A DNA stretch of 64,000 nt from Mobula hypostoma (lineage: Eukaryota): positions 12,648,001-12,712,000 of the forward strand of contig NC_086108.1 in NCBI RefSeq assembly GCF_963921235.1, read 5' to 3'. The notes beneath the pieces were generated by a model. The model worked only from the letters and a program-made list of their open reading frames with translations, did not search any database and had not been told where the DNA came from. The position numbers and the translations under genes are program-made. Position 1 is the first letter of the stretch. Each line of letters opens with the position of its first letter. Below, piece by piece: positions 1,433 through 52,754 of the stretch.

Positions 1433-3496
1433 AAGTGCTAGAAAGTTTGTGAACCCTGTAGAATTTTCTCTATTTCTGCATAAATATGACCTAAAATGTG
1501 ATCAAATCTTCACATATGACCTAAAACTAGATAAAGAGAACCCAATTAAATAAATAACACAATATTACATGCATTTGTTGGAAAAAGTATGTGAATCGCT
1601 GGGGTAACGCTTTTTACAAAAGGTATTTGGTGTCAGGTGTTCCAATCAATCAGATGAGATTGGAGGTGTTACTGAAACAGATCTGTTTATGTGCACCATG
1701 CCTTGATCAAAACAACTTTTTAAGGACCTTAGAAGAATTGTAGAGATGCATAAAGCTGGAAAAGGCACTTCCAAAGACCTGAATGTTTATCAGTCCACAG
1801 TAAGAGAAATTGTCTACAAATGGAGGAAACTCAGTGCTGTTGCTACTCTCCCCAGGAGTTGGCATCCTGCAAAGATCACACCAAGAGCACAACATGCAAT
1901 GCTAAAGGAGGTGAAAAAGAACCCAAAAGATCTGTAGAAATCTCTAGAACTTGCTGAAGTCTCTGTTGACTTGTCCACTATAAGAAAAACACTGAGCAAG
2001 ACTGGTGTTCATGGAAGGTCACCATGGAGGAAACCACTGCCCTCCAAAAAAACTTTGCTGTATATCTCCAATTTGCAAAATACTACCTGGATGTTCTACA
2101 ACACTTCTGGGACAATGTTCTGTGGACAGATGAGACAGAAGATGAACATTTTGGCAGGAATGTACATTGCTATGTTTGAAGGAAAAAGGGCACTGCACAC
2201 CAACACTAAAACCTCATCCCAACTGCGAAGCATGGTGGGAGGAGCATCGTGGTTTGGGGCTGCTTTGCTGCCTCAGGGCCTGGACAGCTTTCAATCGTCA
2301 AGGAAACAATGAATTCAGAATGCATCAAGAAATAGAACAGGAGATTGTCAGAGCAGCAGTCTGTCGCCTGAAGCTTAATAGAAGTTGGATAATGCAACGA
2401 TAGTAGCCCAAAAGACAAGAGTAAATCAACAACAGAATGGGTTAAAAAGAAGAAAGTGCATGTTTTAGAATGGCTGAGTCAAAGCCCTGACCTTATCCTA
2501 TAGAAATGTTGTGGAAGGACCTGAAGCAAGCAGCTCATGCAAGGAAGCCCACCAACATCCCAGAGCTGAAGCAGTTTTGTAAGGAGGAATAGCCTAAAAT
2601 TCCCCCCAAGCCAATGTGCAGGGCTGGAAATGGATAGCTGAAGATTTTTACTACAGAAGGTGGTCACACCAGTTACTGAAAGCAAAGGTTCACATACTTT
2701 TATAACCATATAACCATATAACAATTACAGCACAGAAACAGGCCATCTCGGCTCTTCTAGTCCGTGCCGAACTCATACTCTCACCTAATCCCACTGACCT
2801 GCACTCAGCCTGTAACCCTGCATTCCCTTCCTGTCCATATATCTATCCAATTTAACTTTAAACAACAACACCTAACCTGCCTCAACCACTTCTGCTGGAA
2901 ACTCGTTCCACACAGCCACCACTCTCTGAGTAAAGAAGTTCCCCTCATGTTACCCCTAAAGTTTTGGCCTTTAACTCTCAACTCGTGTCCTCTTGTTTGA
3001 ATCTCCCCCATTCTCAATGGAAAAAGCCTATCCACGTCAACTCTATCAATCCCCCCTCATAATTTTAAACACCTCTATCAAGTCCTCCCTCAACCTTCTA
3101 CACTCCAAAGAATAAAGACCTAACTTGTTCAACCTTTCTCTGTAACTTAGGAGATGAAACCTAGGCAACATTTTAGTAAATCTCCTCTATGCTCTCTCAA
3201 TTTTATTGACATCTTTCCTATAATTCGGTGACCAGAACTGTACTCAATACTCCAAATTTGGCCTTACCAATGCCTTATACAATTTTAACATTACATCCCA
3301 ACTCCTTTTGCCAATACATTGGATCTTTATTTCTCAATAAATAAATGAACAAATATAATGTTTTTGTGTTATTTATTTAATTGCGTTCTCTTTATCTAGT
3401 TTTAGGACTTATGTGAAGATCTGATCACATTTTAGGTCATGCTTATGTAGAAATAGAGAAAATTCTACAAGGTTCTCAAACTTTCTCACACCACTA
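1433..3496 (+). mobile_element. Decayed Tc1-family DNA transposon with long TIRs
   Basis: ~130-bp inverted repeats (1433-1560 vs ~3365-3496) flanked by TA; transposase remnants [49 protein letters not shown]; many stops and frameshifts. Confidence 0.9.
2702..3305 (-). mobile_element. 5'-truncated CR1 LINE nested in the Tc1
   Basis: LFPLRMGEIQTRGHELRV C-terminus; (TATGGTTA)n tail; Tc1 sequence resumes afterwards. Confidence 0.9.
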
Positions 3497-3544
3497 TATA
3501 TCCATTAGCTTCAATGTCTCTCTGGTGACTTTGTTCATACCACA

Positions 3545-3922
3545 ACAATGCAATGCTTTACAGTACCAGCGACGTGGCTTCAATTCCCACTGCTGCCTGT
3601 AAGGAGTTTGTACGTTCTCCTCCCGACCAAGTGCGCTTCCTCTGGTGCTCTGGTCTCCTCCCACAGTCCAAAGGTGTACCAGTTGGTAGGTTAATTGGCC
3701 ATTGTAAATTGTCCCATGAAATAAGCTAGGTTTAAATTAGAGGAATGCTAGTAGGTACAACTCAAAGGGCCGGATGGGTCTATTCTGCAATGTATGTACC
3801 AGTAGAAAGTTAATTGATCATTGTGAATTGTCCCATGATTAGGCTGGGATTAAATCAGGAAACTGCTGGGCAGCACGACTTGAAGGGCTGGAAGGGCCCT
3901 GCATCTCGATGAATAAATAAAT
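3545..3922 (+). mobile_element. V-SINE-like (HE1-type) SINE with partial internal duplication
   Basis: GGAGTTTGTACGTTCTCC...GGTTAATTGGCCATTGTAAATTGTCCC core; (TAAA)n tail; related copy at 44044-44320. Confidence 0.65.
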
Positions 3923-4569
3923 ATAAGTTTCAATTTTCCCAGCTTTGAAAAATGCATAATCATAAAACCCGGACAGCCTCATCCAAACTGCAGCACTACC
4001 TCAAAGCAGTGGTTGAAAACTGCTGCTCAGTCTGTGACCTGGAACTGGTATCACTCAGTTTCGTGCCTCAGCAGCAACCCACTGAGAAAATGCTTTTGCT
4101 AGGTCAAGGGGAGAGACTGTATCTTGTAAAAGACTTGATTATTCACTCTTCAATTCATCGCAAATAAATAAATATTCATCAGCCTTTCTTGTAGATTGTG
4201 AACAACAGCAATCACCGTGCTCCTTGTTCGTTCTCTAAGTGCTTCATCGGCACATCACACGTGGGGAGTAATAACAGACAACAGACAAACCGAATTAGTC
4301 TCAGTCTATTCCCAGAGAACAGGTCACTCCAGTTTTCAAATAATTCATTTGATTGAAGTACTCTGAGATGCTGCTGATTTGATCCATAAATGCATGTAGA
4401 TTAAACTCAGCACTGTAAGAGGCAGAAATACCAGGAGTCTTAAAGGGTTGGAGTTGAATTCACTGCGAAATGAAGAGATTGGCCAAAGTGCCGACGTTCA
4501 ATGAAGTGAAACGTTAATCACTATTCAGCAGCAAGGTCTCTGATCTTTTAACACGTTCCTTTGTATCAC

Positions 4570-5022
4570 GACCAGGATGCTGCTTGGTTTAAAAGTCATG
4601 TACTACCACGAACAGTGGGATAAAGTTGGGCTGTCTTCTCTGAAGCACCAGAGGTTGAGGGGAGATCTGATAGACATGTACAAGATTATGGGAGGCATAG
4701 ACAGAGTGGACAGAGAGTATCGGTTTCCCAGGTTAGAAATGTCTAACACCAGAGAGCATACATTGAAGGTGAGGGGGGGGTAGGTTCAAGGGGGATGTGA
4801 GGGTTACGTTTTTTACTCAGAGAGTGTTGGCTGCCTGGTATGGGGGTAGAGGCAAATACATCACAGACATATGGATAGGCACATGGATATGGAGATGGAA
4901 GGATATAGACATGGTGTAGGTAGGACGGATTAGTGTTTGGGTGTTTTGATTTGCTTTTTAGCTGGTTCAGCAAAACTTTGTGGTCTGAATGGCCAGTTCC
5001 TGTGCTGAACTCTTCAATGTCT
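4570..5022 (+). mobile_element. CR1 3' fragment
   Basis: RLRGDLIDMYKIMGGIDRVD..FP. Confidence 0.85.
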
Positions 5023-5058
5023 ATAATCGTCCAAAGTATTCTCTACAAAGTCCAAAGC

Positions 5059-5903
5059 AATGCACACAAAATGATGGATGAACTCAGCACGTCAGACAGC
5101 ATCCATGCAAAAGAATAAATAGTCAACATTTCAAGCCGAAACCCTTCTTACACCACCACTCTCATCCCCATTCAGGATGCCAGACAGTCCTTCCAGGTGA
5201 GGCAACTCTTCACCTGCACATCTGCTGGGATCACCTGTTGTGTCTGGTACTTCCGATGCTGCCACCTCTACGTTGGTGAGACCCGTTGTAACCTGGGGGG
5301 GGGCCACTTTGTCGCGCACCTCCACACCATCCACCACAAGTGGGACTTCTCGGGGGCCAAACATTTTAATCCTGATTCCCATTCCTGTTCCAACACATTG
5401 GTCCGTGGTCTCCTCTTGTGTCACGATGAGGCCACCATCAGGGTGGAAGTGCAACAACTTATATTCCGTCTGGGTAGCCTCCTAGCTGATGGCGTGAATA
5501 CCGATTTCTCCTTCCGGTGAACAAATCTACCTTCACCACCACCCCTCCATTCCCCACTCTGACCTTTCACTTCTTCTCACCTGCCTATTACTTCCTCCTG
5601 AGTTCCGTCTTCTTTCCCTTTCTCATATGGTTCCCTCTCCTTCCCTATCAGATACTTTCTTCTCAAGCCCTTGACCTTCCCCACTGACCTAGCTTCACCT
5701 TTCACCTTCCAGCTAGCCCCTTTCCCCTCCCTCCATCTTTTTATTCTGGCATCTTTCCCCTTCCTTCTCAGTCCTGAAGAAGGGTTGTGGCCTGAAACGT
5801 TGAATATTCATTTCCATAGATGCTGGCTGACCTGCTGAGTTCCTCCAGCATTTTGTTTTTGTTGCTTCAGATTTCCAGCATCTGCAGAATTTTTTTGTGT
5901 TTG
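5059..5903 (+). mobile_element. Penelope-like element with an inverted 5' terminal segment
   Basis: FTCTSAGITCC...LYVGETRC..LIFRLGSL GIY-YIG frame; 5059-5150 is a reverse-complement copy of the tail (~5777-5862); hammerhead at 5769-5806. Confidence 0.85.
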
Positions 5904-6499
5904 TCCTCAACCAAGTCTTTGCTTTTTCTCTTGCTGGCTCATTACAGAATAAGAAGGTGGAATTTGGAGATGGATTCACTTCACACCGGCTGGGGGCTAA
6001 CGGAACCACTCTGTAGCTGAGTCAGAGCCTGCCTTTAACGTGCTTTGACTAATATTTTCAATCAAGTATTTTGTCATTTTTGAGTAATTATCAACCCATA
6101 ATACCCTAAACACATAATTTGCTCTCTTATCAGACTTGCTGGATAAACTTCTCACTGAAGTGCTGGCCAGACAGAGACATTGTGGGGAGCTAAGTGAAGC
6201 AGGGTAGTCATCGCCCAGTGCCCACTCACAGGGCAGCTTCCTCGAGCTTCAATGAGGGCTACTGAAGACATTAGAGAGGTTCAAGGAAGCACATGGTCAC
6301 AATGGGTTTCCAGTAAAGCAAGGTCCTCAAACCATAATTAACAGAAAAGCAGAAACTTAGAACTAATGCACTAACATCTCACCAGAAAGAAGTGATTGGA
6401 ATCATGAATAATGTTGTGGGACAAGGTGACTGAGAGGTAAAATCGTGTAAATTTATCTTGTCTGGGTTCGTCACAGAGCCAAGGTGCTTGAGCTTTCTA

Positions 6500-9400
6500 A
6501 GGCTGGGTACAGTCTTGAGTTACAGTGTCTACGTACACCGGTGGGGTTACAATGTCTGTGTACATGGGAGGAATACACGGTGTACACAGGAGGGTTTCAG
6601 TTTCTATGTACTATGGTGGGGTTACAGGGTCCGTGTACACCAGTGGGTTTGCACTGTCTCGTGTATACCGGTGAGTTTCAGTGTCTGTGCACGCTGGTGG
6701 GTTACAGAGTCTGTGTACTCCAGTGGGGTTGCAGTGACTGTGTACACAGGTGGGTTGCAGTGACTGTGTACACTGGGGGGTTACAGTGTCTGTGTACTCC
6801 AGTGGGGTTACAGTAACTGTGCACACTGCTGGATTACAGTAACTGTGTACACTGGTGGGTTACAGTAACTGTGCACACTGGTGGGTTACAGTAACTGTGC
6901 ACACTGGTGGATTACAGTAACTGTGTACACTGGTGGATTACAGTGACTGTGTACACTGGGGGGTTACAGTGCCTGTGCACACTGCTGGGTTACAGTAACT
7001 GTGTACACTGGTGGGTTACAGTGCCTGTGTACACTGCTGGGTTACAGTGACTGTGTACACTGGTGGGTTACAGTGACTGTGTACACTGGTGGGTTACAGT
7101 GACTGTGTACACTGCTGGGTTACAGTGTCTGCGTACACTGGTGGATTACAGTAACTGTGCACACTGGTGGGTTACAGTAACTGTGTACACTGGTGGGTTA
7201 CAGTGACTGCGTACACTGGTGGGTTACAGTAACTGTGTACACTGGTGGGTTACAGTGACTGTGTACACTGGTGGGTTACAGTGACTGTGCACACTGGTGG
7301 GTTACAGTAACTGTGTACACTGGTGGGTTACAGTGCCTGTGTACACTGGTGGGTTACAGTGCCTGTGTACACTGCTGGGTTACAGTAACTGTGTACACTG
7401 GTGGGTTACAGTGACTGTGTACACTGGTGGGTTACAGTGACTGTGTACACTGGTGGGTTACAGTAACTGTGCACACTGGTGGGTTACAGTGACTGTGTAC
7501 ACTGGTGGGTTACAGTGCCTGTGTACACTGGTGGGTTACAGTAACTGTGTACACTGGTGGGTTACAGTGACTGTGTACACTGGTGGGTTACAGTGACTGT
7601 GTACACTGCTGGGTTACAGTGCCTGTGTACACTGGGGGGTTACAGTGACTGTGTACACTGCTGGGTTACAGTGACTGTGTACACTGGTGGGTTACAGTAA
7701 CTGTGTACACTGGTGGATTACAGTGACTGTGTACACTGCTGGGTTACAGTGCCTGTGTACACTGGTGGGTTACAGTGACTGTGTACACTGGTGGGTTACA
7801 GTAACTGTGTACACTGGTGGATTACAGTAACTGTGTACACTGGTGGGTTACAGTGACTGTGTACACTGCTGGGTTACAGTGACTGTGTACACTGGTGGGT
7901 TACAGTAACTGTGTACACTGGTGGATTACAGTAACTGTGTACACTGGTGGATTACAGTGACTGTGTACACTGGTGGGTTACAGTGACTGTGTACACTGGT
8001 GGGTTACAGTGACTGTGCACACTGGTGGGTTACAGTAACTGTGCACACTGGTGGATTACAGTAACTGTGTACACTGGTGGGTTACAGTGACTGTGTACAC
8101 TGGTGGGTTACAGTGACTGTGTACACTGCTGGGTTACAGTGACTGTGTACACTGGTGGGTTACAGTGCCTGTGCACACTGGTATATTACAGTAACTGTGC
8201 ACACTGGTGGGTTACAGTAACTGTGCACACTGCTGGGTTACAGTGACTGTGTACACTGGTGGGTTACAGTGTCTGCGTACACTGGTGGATTACAGTGACT
8301 GTGTACACTGGTGGGTTACAGTAACTGTGTACTCTGGTGGGTTACAGTGACTGTGCACACTGGTGGGGTACAGTGACTGTGTACACTGCTGGGTTACAGT
8401 GTCTGCGTACACTGGTGGGTTACAGTAACTGTGTACACTGGTGGATTACAGTAACTGTGCACACTGGTGGATTACAGTGACTGTGTACACTGGTGGATTA
8501 CAGTAACTGTGCACACTGGTGGATTACAGTGACTGTGTACACTGGTGGATTACAGTAACTGTGCACACTGGTGGATTACAGTAACTGTGTACACTGGTGG
8601 GTTACAGTGTCTGCGTACACTGGTGGATTACAGTGACTGTGTACACTGGTGGGTTACAGTAACTGTGTACACTGGTGGGTTACAGTAACTGTGTACACTG
8701 CTGGGTTACAGTAACTGTGTACACTGGTGGGTTACAGTAACTGTGTACACTGGTGGGTTACAGTGTCTGCGTACACTGGTGGATTACAGTAACTGTGCAC
8801 ACTGGTGGATTACAGTAACTGTGTACACTGGTGGGTTACAGTGACTGTGTACACTGCTGGGTTACAGTGTCTGCGTACACTGGTGGATTACAGTAACTGT
8901 GCACACTGGTGGATTACAGTAACTGTGTACACTGCTGGGTTACAGTGTCTGCGTACACTGGTGGGTTACAGTAACTGTGTACACTGGTGGGTTACAGTAA
9001 CTGTGTACACTGCTGGGTTACAGTGACTGTGTACACTGCTGGGTTACAGTAACTGTGCACACTGGTGGGTTACAGTAACTGTGTACACTGCTGGGTTACA
9101 GTGACTGTGTACACTGGTGGGTTACAGTGACTGTGTACACTGCTGGGTTACAGTAACTGTGCACACTGGTGGATTACAGTAACTGTGTACACTGCTGGGT
9201 TACAGTGACTGTGTACACTGGTGGGTTACAGTAACTGTGTACACTGCTGGGTTACAGTGACTGTGTACACTGGTGGATTACAGTAACTGTGCACACTGGT
9301 GGATTACAGTAACTGTGCACACTGGTGGGTTACAGTGACTGTGTACACTGCTGGGTTACAGTGTCTGCGTACACTGGTGGGTTACAGTAACTGTGTACAC

Positions 9401-24016: not shown

Positions 24017-24048
24017 CTACGACGCCTGGATCACAATGTGAAATTTAC
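24017..24048 (-). CDS. TRAPPC6A: TRAPPC6-family last coding exon (32 nt including TAG)
   Basis: cccatttcag|(C)KFHIVIQAS*; matches the CKFQV.I C-terminus. Spliced CDS totals 474 nt = 157 aa + stop. Confidence 0.9.
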
Positions 24049-25814: not shown

Positions 25815-26875
25815 TGTGTATAAATAAAATGCATATACACATGCGTGTATATGTAAGAAAGAGACACTCACACACACATACACATATTTAATAAATAAAT
25901 GATATACATAAATAAATTAAAAAAGAGAGTGATATTGATGAATGACTAGAAAACAGTGTGGTGCCTACTCATGAGACATTAATGAATAATGAAGGTAAAT
26001 CAGGAACTAGCTGCAATTTCCACTGCCAGTCAGATAATGTTGCAAATACTGAGCAGGTCAGGCAGCATTTGTGGAGAAAGGAGCAGGTGTAATTTTCCAG
26101 ATATTGTTGTTTCATCAAAATAAGCATTTGATACGAGGTTTTTAATCCTGAATGGTTCAATTATTTTCTCTCTCCACTGAGTATTTCTAACATTTTCTGT
26201 TTTTATTTCAGATTTTCCATTTTTGTAGCTATTTGATATTTGATCAGCATAATCTTCCTCTTTGATCTTCTGGGTTTTTGACATCTTGTGGCATTCATGG
26301 CTCAGGTCTGGACTATTTGTTTTGTATGGCTACATCCTATTGATATTTTTACGTGCTTGCTATCTTGTACATGCTGTGTGTGGTTGTTGCTACTGTGTTT
26401 TGCACAGCGCAGGTGGCCGAGCAGCGCCGTGGAATCGAGGAAGGAGCGCGGGCAGCACGGGCACGCGAAGGGCGGTGGCCAGCCGTCGATGGCGCCGTGC
26501 TTGCGCAGCCGGTGGCGTGCCAGCGCAGCCCGTGTCAGGCAGCCGCGGCCGCAGTCATCGCACCGGGACCCCACCGGGTAGGAGAGAGGTCCGGCAGAGA
26601 GAAAGACCCTTTCCTCCTCCTCCTCCCCCTCCCCCTTTCTCTCCGCACACAGGTCTGCTACACTCGGCTCATCTCCCCACCCCCCCCCGTCTCTGTAACC
26701 CCTACACTCCCCATCCTCCTGTTCAAATCCCTCTCTCGCCTCCATCTCTGTAATCCCACACTCCCTGTCCTCCTGTTCAAACCCTCCCTCACCCCCTCCC
26801 TATCTCTGTAACCCCTACACTTGCCCCTCCTGTTCAAACCCCTCCTTATCTCTGTGTAGGGAGCTCTGAGGAGAG

Positions 26876-27027
26876 GGAGTACCTTTGGTGCTGATAGCTG
26901 CGCCTCACTAAGGTGGGGATGGTAGGCATCACTGGACCTCACTCATCTCCTAATTCTCTCACTTGTTGGCTCCTCGTGCCATACCCTGGAAACCGCTTCA
27001 GCTAGCGGGCGAAAACAAGTGAGGGGG
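26876..27027 (+). ncRNA. HDV-like self-cleaving ribozyme fold at the RTE 5' end
   Basis: P2 TTCTCTCACTTGTT(26954-67)/AACAAGTGAGGGGG(27014-27); P3 GGC/GCC around L3 TCCTCGT; P1 3' ATACCCT; GG for P1.1; P4 CCGCT/AGCGG; J4/2 CGAA (C27010); best P1 5' GGAGTAC (26876-82) with two mismatches. Confidence 0.8.
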
Positions 27028-27800
27028 TGGTGTCATTACTACACCACGAGGTGATCATCCCAACGGCGGAGCAGGCGGAAGAGGAGACATCTCCCAACGG
27101 CTGCAAAGGCGGATGAGGATGTCCAACAATGGGTAGGGAGGCTTGCGAGCACGCCGCAAGAACCGCCGTAGACCCACAACACTCAGGGCTTGTCTACCTA
27201 GCGTGTGAAGCCTGGATTCGGCGGACTGCGCGGAAGAAACCATCACTGGTTCAACGGGCAGAAAGGCGATTCTCAGCAATGCGTCATGGAGTGCTAAGAG
27301 GGCACAGTGAGACACACAGAACACTGCTGGCCATCCACTGCATCCTGACCTATCTCCAGCCGTCTCGACTATGTCTTGCCACTGGGTCCAGATAGGCCGG
27401 GACGAGACGGTGAGGCTGACGACCTGCGCAACTCTCCCTCACTTTAATCCAAGTCAAGCGCAAGTCATGACTTCAAACCCAAAGCGCAACCTAAAGTCCT
27501 GTGGCGATGGGGGAGTGGCGAAGCAGCAGGTACGGATACACTGGAAGCTGTAGTCACAAACCTGCACAGAGGCGGCCCAGGGCATAGGGTCGCTCTCTAC
27601 TGGACCGAAGCAGCAGTTGAGTTCGGCAGCCCCCTGGGTGTCTGAGCAGCCCTCTTCAGGGTCGCTCTGCTCACCTCCATGGAGGAAGGGGCTGGAAAAG
27701 GTGCCTCAAACATAGTCTGCTTCACTTCACCCTGGCCAGCTTACCGCGGCTGGTGGGGATCCCTCATAGCGGTCGACCTACAACAGTGAAGAAGAAAGTG

Positions 27801-30800
27801 ATGGTGCTCAACCTTGGCACATGGAACGTGAGAACTCCGCGAGATAACATCAAGGCAGACAGACCAGAGAGAAGAACAGCACTGGTTGTAAAAGAGCTAG
27901 CTCGCTACAACGTGGACATAGCAGCTCTCAGTGAAACGCGCCTAGCAGACAAGGGCCAGCTGACAGAACGTAGTGGTGGATTCACGTTCTTCTGGAGTGG
28001 TCGCAGCAGCGCTGAACAACGAGAAGCAGGCGTGGGATTTGCCATCAATTCTAACCTCGCCCGTAAACTCACCAAGCACCCAGAGAGCATCAACGACCGC
28101 CTGATGACACTTCAGCTCCCACTTGCAAACAAGAAGAGCGCTACGCTGACTAGTGGCGACGCTCCCACCATGACCAACCCAGATGACATTAAAGACAAGT
28201 TCTATGAAGAACTCGACGCCCTCATCTCAGCAATCCCACAGTCAGAGAAGCTCATCATTCTCGGGGACTTCAATGCCAGAGTAGGGACAGACTACCAAAC
28301 CTGGGAAGGGATCATTGGAAGACACGGCACTGGCAAGTGTAACAACAACGGCCTTCTGCTCCTCAAGACATGTGCCACACACGACCTTGTCATCACCAAC
28401 ACCCTGTTCCGCCTACCCACCCGTAAGAAGACATCATGGATGCACCCACGCTCGAAGCACTGGCATCTGATTGACTACATCATCACCAGGAAGAGGGACA
28501 GGATGGATGTCAGAGTGACGAGAGCCATGTGTGGTGCCGACTGCTGGACCGACCACCGCCTCATTGTGTCCAAGTTCAGGCTTCGCATTCTGCCCATGAG
28601 AAGACCCCAAGGGCAGAAGACTGCAAAGAGGCTGAATGTCTCCAAGTTGAAAAGCAGCAGGGTTGCAGAAGAATTCGTCGATGACCTTGAAGGCAGACTG
28701 CCAGACACACCACAGGAAGACGGGACCAGCGTTGAGGAACAGTGGACAGCCTTCAGAGACGCTGTCTACACTACCGCCCTTGAACATCTCGGACCAGCAG
28801 CCCAAAGAAACCAAGACTGATTCGATGAGAATGATGAAGAAATACAGGCACTACTAACGGAGAAACATCAACATTACAGAGCGCATCAGAATGACCCCAC
28901 GTCGCTAGCCGAGAAAGATGCCTTTACCAACGCAAGAAGAAAGGTGCAGAAAAAACTTCGCGAGATGCAGGACAGCTGGTTCAGCAAGAAGGCCGATGAA
29001 ATCCAGGGTTATGCAGACAGCCACGACATAAAGCGCTTCTACGATGCGCTTAAGGCTGTATACAGACCCCAGTCCTCTGGCTCTTCACCCCTCCTCAACG
29101 CAGATGAGATGCAGCTGCTGACAGAGAAGAAGCAGATTCTGGATCGGTGGGCTGAGCACTTTAACATCGTCCTTAACCGCCCTGCTGACGTCAACAACGA
29201 GGCCATTGCCCGCCTGCCCCAGGTAGAGATCAACAAGAACCTCAACACCCTCCCCACAGTAGATGAAGTCAGGAAGGCAGTGAAGCAACTCTCCTGTGGC
29301 AAAGCGCCAGGACCCGATGCAATCCCTGCTGAGGTATACAAAGCAGGAGGCCCTGTCATGATGCAAAAGCTGACTGTACTCTTCCAGTCCATGTGGAAAA
29401 AGGGACAGGTCCCGCAACAGCTGAAAGATGCCAGCATAGTCCACATCTACAAGAGGAAAGGCAACCGCCAGTCTCGGGACAACCACCGAGGCATCTCCCT
29501 CTTGTCCATTGCGGGGAAGATTCTGGCCCGTGTCCTGCTCAACCGCCTTCTCCAACATCTTGAGCAAGGTCTGCTCCCAGAAAGCCAGTGCGGCTTCCGT
29601 GCTGAACGTGAGACTGCGGACATGATTTTTGCTGCGCGCCAACTCCAGGAAAAATGCCAGGAGTAACACAGTGACCTCTTCGTGACCTTTGTCGATCTAA
29701 CCAAGGCTTTCGATACGGTCAGCAGAGAAGGCTTGTGGAAGATCATGGAGAAGTTTGGCTGCCCCAGCAAGTTCATCACAATCGTCCGGCAGTTCCACGA
29801 CGGTATGATGGTAAAAGTTCTGGATGATGGCGACGAGTCGGAGACCTTCCCAGTGACAAATGGTGTCAAACAAGGCTGCGTTCTTGCCCCGACTCTGTTC
29901 AGTATGGTATTCTCTGCCATGCTGACAGATGCCTTCCGTAACTACGAAGAAGGAATTCACGTCAGGTAGAGGACTGACGGCAGGTTGTTCAACCTTAGGC
30001 GCCTGCAGGCAGTTACAAAGGTGCCAGAAATTGTCATCAGAGATTTCTTGTTTGCTGATGACTGTGCACTCAACGCCAGCACAGAGGAGATGCAGCGTGA
30101 AATAGACTGCTTCTCACAAGCCTGCGACAACTTCGGTCTCACTATCAGCACCAAAAAGACCGAAGTTATGTACCAGCCTGCCCCAGGAAAGCCATACCAG
30201 GAGCCGCGCATCACAGTGAAGGGCCAGAACCCCCAGGCAGTCGACAACTTCACCTACCTGGGCAGCATACTCTCTCGCACAGTGAACATAGACGCTGAGG
30301 TCAACAACAGGATTGCCAAAGCCAGCGCCGCCTTTGGGAGACTCCGTGAGAACGTCTGGGAGCAGAGAGGACTCAGCCTTATCACCAGGCTGAAGGTCTA
30401 CTGTGCAGTGGTCCTTACCACCCTCCTTTATGCCAGCAAGACCTGGACTGTCTACAGCAGACACGCCAAACAGCTCAACCACTTTCACCTGAGCTGTCTC
30501 CGCAGACTCCTCCACATCAGGTGGCAGGACAAAGTCCCCGACACGGAAATCCTGGAACGAGCTGGGCTCTGCAGCGTCTACACCCTCCTGCTGAAAGCCC
30601 AAGCCAGGTGGGCTGGACATGTGGTCAGAATGCCAGACAGCCGATTGCCTAAGCAGCTGCTGTATGGAGAACTGTGTCAGGGCAAGCGCTCAGTTGGGGG
30701 GCAGAAGAAACGTTACAAAGTCTGCCTTAAAGCGTCCCTCAAAGGCCTGGGTGTCAACATCAACACGTGGGAGACGCTTGCCCTCGATCGTCCAGCTTGG

Positions 30801-31007
30801 CGCAGCAAGATCACCACAGGAGCCCGTGCAGCTGAAGTCAGGCGCATCATTGAGGCGCAACGAAAGCGTGCTGTGCGCAAGGCCCGAGCAGCATCCACTG
30901 CCACGACAGCACCCACCCACTTGTGTCCCACATGTGGGCGAGCCTTCAGGGCCCGGATTGGCCTCATCAGTCACCTCCAGACCCACAACCACCAATCTCC
31001 CATTTGA
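27801..31007 (+). pseudogene. RTE ORF (AP endonuclease + reverse transcriptase + C-terminal C2H2 zinc finger)
   Basis: LGTWNVRT..IAALSETR..GDFNAR..WTDHRLI; PGPD; VDLTKAFD; KQGCVLAPTLF; FADD; CPTCGRAF..H..TH. One frame throughout with three nonsense codons (28818, 29664, 29967). Confidence 0.95.
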
Positions 31008-31599
31008 CTTTGAAGCCATGGTAATCTTCGACTACGAAGGACGAACAACAACAACAACAACAACAACAACTGTGTTTTGCACCTTGACCCTGTAGTAATG
31101 CAATCTCATTTAGCTGTATTCATGGGTATTCATGTATAGTTGAATGTCAGCAAGCTGAAGGGCAGCGGGAATTTGGGGAACAACGAAGAGAATGAGTAGG
31201 GAGTATACAGTTCCTGCATGGGAGCCATTCGCAGGTCGAGGCAGTCTACTACTAAGGAATCTGTCTGAGCCCAATGCCTGCCCCTCTGCAGCACAGGATG
31301 GTTGCTTTCAGATGTCTATGAAGAGGGACCATTGGTGATTGACCCACTGGCTGCCTAGAGATCTTCTGAGTCCAGACAGAACAAGAGAGACAGGATTGAA
31401 AAGCACTCTTAAACAAGGGGTGCACTCTAAAATTGCTGTGACAATGTCAATGAGTAAATCAAGTCACCGTTTTAAAAGAAAAAAGCCAAGCCTTGATGTA
31501 AGGGGGACAGTATGGTCATCCTGATAATACACTTAATTTGGAAAATTTGTGTTAAAAACTCAGGAAGCATTTACTTTTAAGTTTTCCTCAAAGAATGAT

Positions 31600-33975: not shown

Positions 33976-34115
33976 CACAGTCAGCTCTAGGGCAACACGA
34001 AGATGAAGGAATGGTGGGCAGGCAGGACTTCTTTCTCAAGTTTACGTTAACCTTTCCATTAACTGGCTGTGGACTGTAATACAGTGGATCTTTTCCTCGG
34101 TCCCAAATCACTTAC

Positions 34116-34209
34116 ACGCTGGCATCGCAGAAACCTCCGCCGTGACTGTGCAGTCAATTCCCAGGTTGGACAAGGCACCTCTCAACAGCCCACAGGTGAA
34201 TGCCAAGAA
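34116..34209 (-). CDS. TRAPPC6A: TRAPPC6-family exon 5 (94 nt)
   Basis: ttacag|FLAFTCGLLRGALSNLGIDCTVTAEVSAMPA(C)|gtaagt. Confidence 0.97.
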
Positions 34210-34734
34210 CTGTAAAGTAAAAGCCAACATGCTGAATACATTCTGACAGTGCAAGTCAATAGAACAGTACAATAATTAATAAGGTGCACTCTCTGTGGTT
34301 CTGTACATATCTCTGCAAGAGATGAGGGAAATGAACACACTCACTTCTTGCCCTTTAGGTGCAGGCAAAGTAAGGTACAGAAGCAGAATTAGGCCATTGT
34401 GTCTGATTAGCCATTTCAACATGGCTGATTCATTTCCCTCTCAGCCCCAATCTCCTGCCTTCTCCCCATATCCCTTCATGCCCTGACTAATCAATGTACC
34501 TTTCCCTCTAAGTTATATCTCTGCTACCTTTCTTTATTAATGGTTTCCATATTTGCTGTCTTCAGCCATCTGTTACCTCACCTTAGTCAACAAAGATTGG
34601 GGTCAAGAGGGTCAGTCATAGTAGCAGTTAGCACGATGCTATTACAGCTCGGGGAATTAGAGTTCGGATGGGCCTGCAAGGTAAATGCAGCCTCCCATCG
34701 AGCCATGGGACGGTGCAACAGTCACACAATGGAG

Positions 34735-40140: not shown

Positions 40141-40197
40141 AGTTAAACCCTCCCTCCAGTTCACCTACAATGGCAATTTGTGTGAACCACTGACTAC

Positions 40198-40315
40198 CTG
40201 ATGATTTGTTCGCAGGTTGTCAATCTGTTTCCGATAGAGGTTTGTCCAGAATTCCTTGCAGATAAACTTCATGATGTCCAGCTCATCTTTGAACGAAGGA
40301 GTTTCCTTAGTGAAT
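40198..40315 (-). CDS. TRAPPC6A: TRAPPC6-family exon 3 (118 nt)
   Basis: tgcag|(R)FTKETPSFKDELDIMKFICKEFWTNLYRKQIDNLRTNHQ|gtagtc; phase matches exon 2. Confidence 0.97.
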
Positions 40316-40727
40316 CTGCAACAACAATCACAGTTCACATTTATAAAATACCTTGAGCATTGATTAACTTCAAAGCAGTCATCAAACAAAAACTGGACTT
40401 GGAAAACACTCAGGCAGATGATACTGGACAACAAAGAGTTTGCTTCCTGAATACTTTTGGTATATTTTATGGATTTTGGGCTGCTGATTATGAAAACCAC
40501 CACTTTTTAAAATTGCCGATATACGTTATTTCAATTCATAATTCAAGTGAATAACAATGTTGCCCGCAATACAAGCTGAAACATTTTCTATCTTGTCTAG
40601 GCACGCATGGGAGTGCTTAGGCAGTGCAAGACAAGTCTTAGAAAGGCTATAATTTCTAATTTTCAAAAAAAACTTTTGTCCGATGTGGGACATTTGACAA
40701 ACCTTGAACTTTACTGTGCTCATGGAC

Positions 40728-48329: not shown

Positions 48330-48625
48330 AGTGAGGTTTTTGAGGGAAGAGGAGGATGAGAGTTTTGGAGTGAGGGTAAGTGTTTTTGAGGGAAGAGGAG
48401 GGTAAGAGTTTTGGAGGGAGTAATGGTGAGTGTTTTTGAGGGAAGAGGAGGGTAAGAGTTTTGGAGGGAGTGAGGGTGAGTGTTTTTGAGGGAAGAGGAT
48501 GGTGAGAATTTTGGAGAGTGAGGGTCAGTGTTTTTGAGGGAAGAGGAGGGTGAGAATTTTGTAGGGAGTGAGGGTCAGAGTTTTGGAGGGAGTGAGGGTG
48601 AGTGTCTTTGAGGGAAGAGGGGGTT
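48330..48625. repeat. 50-bp purine-rich tandem repeat in TRAPPC6 intron 1
   Basis: TGTTTTTGAGGGAAGAGGA.. at 48381, 48431, 48481. Confidence 0.9.
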
Positions 48626-48629
48626 GAGG

Positions 48630-48960
48630 ATTAGGGGCCTGCGGTCGGTCGGTCGGTCTGCGCTGCGCTGCGTTCGCGGCCTGCTTCCTGCTTCCTCCCC
48701 AGTCCTCAGCCTCAGTTACCGGGTCCTCGGGCTCAGCCTCGCTCTGCAGTCGCGACACCAGCTCCAGGTGCAGCAGCTCGAACAGCACCTCGGTCATGGC
48801 ACCGGCTCCTTCCCTCCGCTTCCCCTGCCCGGTGGCCGCCCGCTGACTCTCCCGGAGTCGCCAACCCCTGGGGAGCCTGTAGTCGGCCACTTGGGCGCGG
48901 AGTCGGGACCCGGAATCTGGGCGGTGTCACCGTGATCTGGGGCGGGAGATGGTCCGTTTC
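48630..48960 (-). promoter_or_regulatory. CpG island over TRAPPC6 exon 1, with a GC box
   Basis: High CpG density; GGGGCGGG at ~48939. Confidence 0.55.
48720..48797 (-). CDS. TRAPPC6A: TRAPPC6-family (TRAPP subunit 6A/6B-like) coding exon 1
   Basis: GCCATG start at 48797; MTEVLFELLHLELVSRLQSEAEPEDP resembles the TRAPPC6 N-terminus (..VLFEFLHTEMV..); donor GTAACT follows; CpG-rich. The A vs B paralog assignment is inferred from residues and ERCC2 linkage. Confidence 0.9.
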
Positions 48961-49560
48961 CTGGTGTTTATAATGGGCTGGGGTCGGTACTGAGATTCTG
49001 TGGTCGGGAAGTCTGTGGTCAGTGTCTGGAGATGGTGGGCAGGGTCTGAGGGTCAGTGGGCAGGCAGGCAGGATCTGGAGTCTGGGGTCAGTGGGCAGGC
49101 CGGCAGGGTCTGAGGGTCAGTGGGCAGGCCAGCTGGCAGGGTCTGAGGGTTAGTGGGCAGGATGGCCGGCAGGGTCTGAGGGTCAGTGGGCAGGCAGGCA
49201 GGATCTGGAGTCTGGGGTCAGTGGTCAGGGTATGGATCTGGTGCTCAGTGTCTGGGTCTGCTGGTCAGTGTCCCGAATCAATGGGATCAGTGTTCAGGGT
49301 CTGGGTGTTTATAACGGGCTGGGGTTGGTACTGAGATTCTGTGGTCGGGAGGTCTGATGGTCAGTGTCTGGAGATGGTGGGCAGGGTCTGAGGGTCAGTG
49401 GGCAGGCCGGCAGGGTCTGGAGTCAGTGGTCAGGGTCTGGGTCTGCTGGTCAGTGTCCTGAATCATTGGGATCAGTGTTCAGGGTCTGGGTATTTATAAT
49501 GGGCTGGGTCAGTACTGAGATTGTGTGGTTTGGGGCTGGTGCTCAGTCTGGGGCTGATCC
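48960..49560. repeat. Nested tandem duplications upstream of TRAPPC6
   Basis: GTGTTTATAA.GGGCTGGG...TACTGAGATT block three times (~48961, 49301, 49487), with internal GGGTCTGAGGGTCAGTGGGCAGG units. Confidence 0.85.
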
Positions 49561-52359: not shown

Positions 52360-52692
52360 CTGCTCATTGGCTCCACATTAACTACTTCTTACACCGCCTG
52401 CCGGTGTAGCAACGCCAGGGTCACTGCTGGTGGAGCTGGGCTGGGGGCTGCACGAACTGCACAGCACGATCTTACCCATCTCCCCGAAGCTGGGATTTCA
52501 ATCAGGCTCTCGACGGTCCATTAACAGTACCTGGCTCCGTGTCGCGGCACTCGATTGCTACAGGCTGGAGAGTGAAGGCGGCTCGGATTGACGGACAGTT
52601 CGTTTAACCAATGCGATACGAGGTTTGTAGATGTCTGCCAATGATTGGTTTTTATGCCCTGCAGGGGCCGATACAGTTGCAGAGCGGCGAGG
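52360..52692 (+). promoter_or_regulatory. ERCC2 promoter/5' UTR: CpG-rich with CCAAT boxes
   Basis: CCAAT at 52608 and 52638, ATTGG at 52644 and ~52366; CpG enrichment directly upstream of the ATG. Confidence 0.6.
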
Positions 52693-52697
52693 ATGAG
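52693..52697 (+). CDS. ERCC2: ERCC2/XPD first coding exon (ATGAG, 5 coding nt)
   Basis: AGGATGAG|GTGAGT: strong donor in a CpG-rich region. Joins exon 2 in frame to give [10 protein letters not shown]. Confidence 0.85.
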
Positions 52698-52754
52698 GTG
52701 AGTGCGGAGTATTATGGGCTGTCGGCAGCTGGAATCCCAAGTTATTCCCAAATC

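Follow-up and report, generated by a model that had tools for sequence, protein, structure and literature searches.

Zinc-finger gene tail ahead of an RTE-type retrotransposon in Mobula hypostoma, and host-gene heads across its family

An RTE-type insertion in a TRAPPC6-like gene

The window analysed here, a stretch of 64,000 nucleotides (G000:C50:12648001-12712000), contains a TRAPPC6-like gene, and an RTE-type retrotransposon sits antisense to it in its last intron, as delimited by a predicted last exon (Table 1). The CpG-rich first coding exon of the gene lies at 48600-49000 on the minus strand, and that of a divergent neighbour, named ERCC2 in the initial annotation, at 52400-52700 on the plus strand; the C-rich repeats that follow both exons are unrelated to the array described below.

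The insertion is bounded by ACTGTGTTTTGCAC, the 14-bp duplication of the initial annotation, which occurs exactly twice in the window, at 26392 and 31069, cannot be extended and encloses 4663 nt. Its flanks belong to an old repeat (263 candidates, 40 scored, 39 non-self matches listed), and in 14 of the 14 other copies of this repeat that were fetched, left-flank sequence passes directly into right-flank-like sequence, with alignment scores of 37-77 against the right flank and 10-14 against the insert. Thus, the flanks rejoin as one repeat, as had been proposed, the pre-insertion site lacked 26406-31068, and everything from 26406 on was inserted. A joint from 26405 to 31106 was seen in B, C and E, three other organisms; since paralogues of the repeat in the flanks could give it, it was not taken as an orthologous empty site.

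A single ORF with the Pfam domains Exo_endo_phos and RVT_1 (AP endonuclease and reverse transcriptase), a short-repeat 3' tail and the 14-bp duplication are the traits of the RTE clade, a label that we take from this anatomy and from general knowledge of such elements. The window insertion is a young, dead RTE copy, which differs by 1.95% from the column majorities of its family. Duplications of RTE elements are reported to peak at 10-12 bp (PMC4245944).

Table 1. Positions of the features of the insertion, of its host gene and of the donor genes
Feature	Position (window unless a contig is given)	Strand	Basis or remark
Predicted last coding exon, TRAPPC6-like gene	24017..24048	-	acceptor and KFHIVIQAS-stop, sole motif-scan match
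Left target-site duplication	26392..26405	.	exact repeat; last 5 nt TGCAC
Extra A, absent from target and donor alike	26406..26406	.	
Inverted C2H2 zinc-finger coding piece	26407..26566	-	copy of G000:C80:36570412-36570253
Inversion junction, 4-nt microhomology CCGG	26563..26566	.	donor alignment
Last zinc-finger codons and TAG stop (26579-26581)	26563..26581	+	donor alignment
Predicted 3' UTR start and ~3 units of C-rich minisatellite	26582..26853	+	donor alignment
Predicted HDV-like ribozyme without first 3 nt	26854..27025	+	structure comparison
RTE-type single ORF (AP endonuclease and reverse transcriptase)	27801..31007, frame 27621-31007	+	three in-frame stops
(CAA)n 3' tail	31043..31068	+	
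Right target-site duplication	31069..31082	.	exact repeat
TRAPP-family (TRAPPC6-like) exon upstream of host intron	34111..34218	-	Pfam PF04051 match, translation
TRAPPC6-like exon	40195-40317	-	Pfam PF04051 search
OTUD5 exon 1 donor; offspring L021-L042	G000:C80:31944774-31944113	-	largest lineage found
C71 gene, exon 1 with 33-bp GC repeats	L173, G000:C71:46749550-46748825	-	
Intact single-exon MCEE-like gene	L195, G000:C5:126106874-126107104	-	at least 7 (up to 16) RTE copies start with its coding sequence

The partly inverted tail of a zinc-finger gene ahead of the element

The initial annotation had read the sequence between the left duplication and the element as a CpG-island first exon and the start of an intron, carried along from another gene. 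The stretch 26406-26590 is indeed very CpG-rich (74% GC, observed/expected 1.05). Using 26406-26600 as a query against the genome, we found four candidates with six matches: the window itself, two opposite-strand pieces each at C80:36.57 Mb and C36:82.23 Mb, and one at C50:28.80 Mb. The C80 locus holds an intact C2H2 zinc-finger ORF of 331 aa, preceded by an acceptor; a candidate first exon lies 8 kb upstream within a CpG island. This gene is single-copy, as are the 731 nt upstream of it, and its orthologue in organism C is one contig; a homologue search with its protein returned 2491 generic C2H2 matches, the best at 31-50% identity, and no orthologue name.

Alignment to this donor shows what precedes the RTE within the duplication: host-gene sequence, namely the tail of a zinc-finger gene. 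What matches are the final 290 nt of the terminal coding exon together with 3' UTR, half in antisense, rather than a first exon and intron start. The inverted, CpG-rich part is identical to the donor at 152 of 160 positions, with five of the eight changes being CpG-type, and encodes one whole finger and most of the next (Pfam zf-C2H2_4, E 1.4e-7). The segment thus consists of non-element sequence that lies within the duplication, is missing from the empty site and has a single donor locus (C80:36.57 Mb), as is typical of 5' transduction.

Several motifs of the earlier reading are present in the sequence and turn out to be something else. The ATG at 26489 exists but arose by CpG deamination and is not found in the donor, and the plus-strand reading that it opens (MAPCLRS...) was rejected, as it has no Pfam match and its ATG is derived. 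The proposed splice donor GG/GTAGGA is there (GGGTAGGA at 26576-26583) but holds the TAG stop of the zinc-finger frame (26579-81). The C-rich repeats form an array at 26673-26841, with a period of 54 bp instead of about 60. In blastn this array has no similarity to the rest of the window, including the sequence past the TRAPPC6 and ERCC2 first exons, which speaks against the supposed likeness to the first exon and intron of these two genes. In the donor, the minisatellite counts 26 units, no AATAAA was found between the stop and the array end, and the first one lies only past the array. Sequencing depth over the minisatellite (window 26673-26853) is ~80,000 in organism C versus 3,000-7,500 in B or E.

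The carried CpG-rich piece has lost CpGs at the same rate as the RTE body (5/31 versus 33/208, Fisher p 1.0), which argues against a protected island here. A sequencing run, taken as RNA by guess alone, has next to no cover over the carried segment and so has no bearing on its expression. In organism C, a single contig matches just 26407-26566 and carries the donor letters at three sites, indicating that the window letters are derived. As for the antisense CpG-rich exon that the insertion was thought to bring into TRAPPC6, the RTE itself is antisense, but the CpG-rich piece lies in zinc-finger sense relative to TRAPPC6.

Between the inverted and the sense pieces, 113 nt of the donor are missing. 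At the outer end, TGCAC matches the antisense strand of the donor directly ahead of the inverted piece, with the one extra A in between; of 992 antisense positions in the donor ORF, 5 have this 5-mer. The inverted 5' segment adjoins the duplication, the 3' segment is non-inverted and both junctions show microhomology, so that the flip, with its 5-nt and 4-nt microhomologies and 113-nt gap, fits a twin-priming signature. The model of twin priming for 5'-inverted L1 reportedly goes back to Ostertag and Kazazian in 2001. For L1, microhomologies of 2-5 nt and duplications of 10-20 bp are described (PMC2912911, PMC4245944), and the window copy, with its duplication of 14 bp, resembles these cases in the inverted 5' piece and in the microhomology at both junctions, unlike them in being RTE-type, in a non-mammal, with host rather than element sequence inverted. 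In human cells, inversions are reported almost only for L1, among assayed elements that did not include RTE (PMC4245944).

Other copies of the family show both states. The C36 copy is un-inverted, with colinear zinc-finger sequence, stop, minisatellite and RTE inside its own duplication of 11-12 bp, while further inverted copies are L139, L083, L041, L052 and L054. A sample drawn by the 3' end (696 candidates, 40 scored, 38 after setting aside the window and one other copy) contains one copy with an internal inversion of its own and four with an inherited inverted head. Inversion is thus uncommon, which counts against the explanation that we favour below.

Predicted ribozymes and host-gene heads in the family

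The element proper begins with a ribozyme-like structure at 26851/26854, ~445 nt past the insertion start rather than ~470 nt as annotated, so that the end of the originally delimited segment lies inside it. HDV-like ribozymes are reported at the 5' end of R2, R4, L1Tc and RTE elements (PMC3774820, PMC7761336). As in those, the predicted fold is a double pseudoknot, and P1 coincides with the first base of the element in clean copies. Here the 5' start of such copies pairs with a 7-nt segment 130 nt downstream (P1', 26981-87), within nested helices P1, P1.1, P2, P3 and P4. In the predicted fold, 87.8% of 417 cells are paired across 15 copies, versus 38-55% in slid controls. P1 covaries between young copies and older relatives (G-C versus A-U at pair 6, a compensatory change in 6 rows), and none of 500 shuffles attains either the paired fraction or the covariation score, a control that is inflated by relatedness. 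Counting against the fold, P2 pair 119/169 is unpaired in 8 of the 15 rows. A search of the window with Rfam at gathering score gave 0 hits. The GC after P4 is identical in 15/15 rows and includes the invariant C of J4/2, which we take to be catalytic.

A search with 26854-26995, in which all 20 candidates were scored, gave 7 young matches at 96-100% and 13 older ones at 73-86%. Five of the young matches (window, C36, C50b, C64 and C80b) have one minisatellite/RTE junction in common, with a GT microhomology at 26854-55; the other two (C9:112.17 Mb and C18:124.41 Mb) start cleanly at AGGGTGT, exactly at P1, and carry nothing in front. The older relatives begin with GGGGTAT or GGGGTGT, and in this older RTE-like family (L092-L104) the HDV-type 5' ends look intact and are usable as an outgroup. 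In the five zinc-finger-headed copies the minisatellite replaces the first three ribozyme bases and three of seven P1 pairs are lost, so that four of seven are kept, compared with 6-7 in the two clean young copies. One P1 mismatch in the horseshoe-crab R2 ribozyme went with no cleavage, and the jewel-wasp R2 ribozyme, with a P1 of 4 nt, cleaved up to 32% (PMC3774820). A 4-bp P1 thus need not be dead, and from its structure we consider the ribozyme at the zinc-finger junction likely inactive.

The same junction occurs in five separate insertions with differing 5' truncations and 1-17 repeat units, as would be expected for one read-through RNA and for 5' transduction. A tree of 20 long copies is star-like and leaves the zinc-finger clade unsupported. 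By non-CpG sites, the nearest sister of the window copy is C50b; the two have two such sites in common that are absent from copies without the zinc-finger head, and one more in the ribozyme region. C36 as the parent of the window copy was rejected on non-CpG sites. The window copy and C36 nevertheless have one 3'-UTR change in common and 5' limits within 1-5 nt of each other, which we count against our favoured explanation; at this common limit the donor ORF has the loop of its strongest 40-nt hairpin (rank 1/956, z -1.41). Moreover, a zinc-finger-headed copy (L044, C80:19888111-19888550) ends at the equivalent of window 27093 and has no RTE body within 12 kb downstream.

The single donor locus that had been predicted exists, but it is a gene tail rather than a transcription start, and no RTE follows it: none was found in C80:36535001-36585000 (35 kb downstream and 14 kb upstream, one assembly haplotype). 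No longer zinc-finger-RTE master was found, nor any copy whose zinc-finger sequence reaches beyond the common 5' limit. Features of the 3' UTR that the offspring have in common are missing from the present donor, as expected if the source was a different allele. Organism B, whose flanks differ by ~1.5%, holds the RTE family, with a depth over 26919-27135 of 1397 versus 7 in C and 4 in E, whose flanks differ by ~8%. One contig of organism B has the derived letter of the window at 26481, which suggests that organism B may share the window insertion.

Other members of the family carry other genes. When 26846-27100 was searched, with 40 scored of 322 candidates, only 7 of the 40 reached 5' of 26977, most family members thus lacking the segment, and 32 began at 26999. 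In 21 of the 22 of these that were read, the join is to the 3' end of exon 1 of another C80 gene, whose downstream exons match the solved OTUD5 (E 1e-27 and 3.5e-16); the exon ends in GAGCAG/GT and the element supplies the acceptor TTCAG/CTAG inside the P4 loop (AG at 27000-01), so that the 5' half of the ribozyme is removed. The C80 gene was not among the results of an OTU family search, and its identity as OTUD5 came from the exon matches. From ATG to donor, its exon 1 (L075) measures 662 nt with recognisable ends in different frames, which reflects either a true frameshift or a fault in the assembly; in several offspring, the GC-rich stretch of exon 1 contains additional bases. A decayed processed copy of OTUD5 exon 1 and the start of exon 2 (81%) lies at C22:113579048-113579122 (L068). 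The 37-Mb contig C80 bears two of the four donor genes, zinc-finger and OTUD5, 4.6 Mb apart.

In 14 of the 22 loci an inverted OTUD5 piece is present. Ahead of it, where the copy is long enough, a gene at C71:46.749 Mb has contributed its exon 1, spliced to 17 nt of the exon that follows, in a lineage that lacks window 27490-27790. A search with the C71 piece showed its junction motif in 29 of 30 loci read and the OTUD5/RTE motif in 25 of 30. In the MCEE lineage, coding sequence of MCEE and a different inverted piece of OTUD5 precede the RTE, which starts at 27049; of 17 matches in the MCEE search, one is the intact gene on C5, and seven of the seven others read continue into the element. Additional non-RTE 5' heads on long copies were seen at L158:760-1079 (C21:51.6 Mb) and L153:1250-1340 (C73:1.88 Mb). 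No source RTE was found at OTUD5 (50 kb), the C71 gene (8 kb) or MCEE (3 kb) either, and at all four donors we thus infer the source.

Overall, all host-headed lineages found have a damaged predicted ribozyme, in three forms: a cut P1 (zinc finger), splicing into the P4 loop (OTUD5, 21/22 loci read) and a start at 27049 (MCEE, 7/7 non-donor loci read). This breakage, in three separate ways, sets them apart from the HDV-like ribozymes described in other retrotransposons. Young copies found with a clean ribozyme start number 2, versus at least 5 + 38 + 7 with host heads, only part of the 38 having been read. That HDV-like ribozymes of retrotransposons trim the upstream transcript is called likely (PMC7761336). 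Most of the near-complete family copies examined open with host-gene sequence and have a broken predicted ribozyme, the loss of which probably allowed the host pieces to be carried along.

Origin of the window copy and its place among host-element chimeras

We consider it probable that the window copy arose by read-through 5' transduction of the zinc-finger tail, from a source in the 3' UTR that has since been lost, and was flipped by twin priming. The source RTE would have inserted in sense in the 3'-UTR minisatellite of the C80 gene, losing the first three bases of its ribozyme at the join. It was likely transcribed from the promoter of the zinc-finger gene without being cut free; the 4-bp P1 remnant would cleave poorly, leaving the upstream mRNA attached. 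At the target, the 3' overhang may then have started a second cDNA within the zinc-finger portion, which would have been joined to the first at CCGG. The source may never have been fixed, or may have recombined out between flanking repeat units, and the window copy has presumably been methylated and dead since insertion.

That no RTE lies in any of the four donor genes would equally be explained if the join had formed at the RNA or cDNA level, by template switching or by ligation of ribozyme-cut RTE RNA to zinc-finger mRNA, the chimera then inserting elsewhere, with a CpG-rich internal promoter, and spawning the five copies, the flip still being due to twin priming. The MCEE junction lies mid-coding although the gene is now intact, the join has a 2-nt microhomology and a nearly full-length RTE part behind it, the window copy and C36 have one 5' limit, as if it were an RNA start, and such mechanisms are listed for L1 (PMC13174262). 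However, a master is missing here too, since no copy extends further into the zinc-finger gene than the common 5' limit and the window copy does not descend from C36; the limit falls in the loop of the strongest donor hairpin, which could stall reverse transcription (z only -1.4), and the OTUD5 junction is an exact donor-to-acceptor splice. Overall, we regard an RNA-level join as unlikely, yet worth keeping in view. An un-inverted insertion followed by a DNA-level inversion of 26407-26566 with deletion appears highly improbable to us: the CCGG junction is a palindrome in a GC-rich, hairpin-containing region, but one breakpoint coincides within 1 nt with the duplication end and has a 5-nt microhomology, both duplication copies are perfect and the same geometry recurs in other family copies. 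Hardly any weight is left for the original proposal of an unspliced first exon and intron start with a source RTE in intron 1; the segment is CpG-rich, lies inside the duplication and has one donor locus, but its donor match is the end of a terminal coding exon and 3' UTR, half antisense, the candidate true first exon 8 kb upstream is not carried and the ATG is derived. This proposal, while failing for the window copy, holds for the OTUD5 lineage with its spliced exon 1. The initial annotation is thus partly confirmed in what it observed and partly supported in how it interpreted it.

Read-through transduction being our preferred account, the window copy is of the read-through type with an L1-like inversion, outside the first-exon type. 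The latter is known from primates, where SVA_F1 starts with MAST2 exon 1 and chimpanzee pt_SVA_D6 with STK40 exon 1 (PMC6139936). There, as in the OTUD5 lineage, a GC-rich host exon replaces the 5' end, dozens of copies exist and later 5' additions occur; a first exon joined donor to acceptor is found in the OTUD5 lineage and not in the window copy. SVA differs in being non-autonomous and is not known to carry a ribozyme; the window lineage differs in its terminal coding exon and 3' UTR, joined to the element without splicing. LINE-1/mRNA 5' chimeras, including co-option of the RAP1GDS1 promoter, were described by Law and Burns (PMC13174262). These likewise join host mRNA in front of a near-full-length LINE within one duplication, often with no source at the donor, and differ in comprising 17 events, mostly single copies at transcript starts (PMC13174262). 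Here, unlike in the L1 chimeras, the element is RTE-type, and of the long copies found, more have a host head than the native 5' end. Among the titles and abstract openings searched, a coverage that subscription papers lie outside, none couples ribozyme loss to host 5' capture, serial or single, in RTE elements.

For the family as a whole, we see about even chances that its burst was driven mainly by ribozyme-less sources riding host CpG-island promoters. Capture would have been serial, with the zinc-finger tail, OTUD5 and then MCEE or the third gene on top, via twin-primed inversions, and the sources would later have been purged from the donor genes. The job of the ribozyme would then be to block 5' transduction, and its loss would not stop, and may favour, amplification.

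The single window copy is a dead insertion, and its value lies mostly in the family-level pattern. Host-exon-headed subfamilies were previously known in primate SVA and as rare events in L1; the present family shows them in a LINE that is autonomous and bears a ribozyme, with at least three such lineages, all of which have the predicted ribozyme broken. Fragments of housekeeping-gene exons have spread to dozens of loci in this way and will confuse gene annotation. The family adds twin-priming-type inversions outside L1 and, moreover, offers natural 5' ends in matched wild-type and knock-out form for probing the role of a LINE ribozyme in the vertebrate germline.
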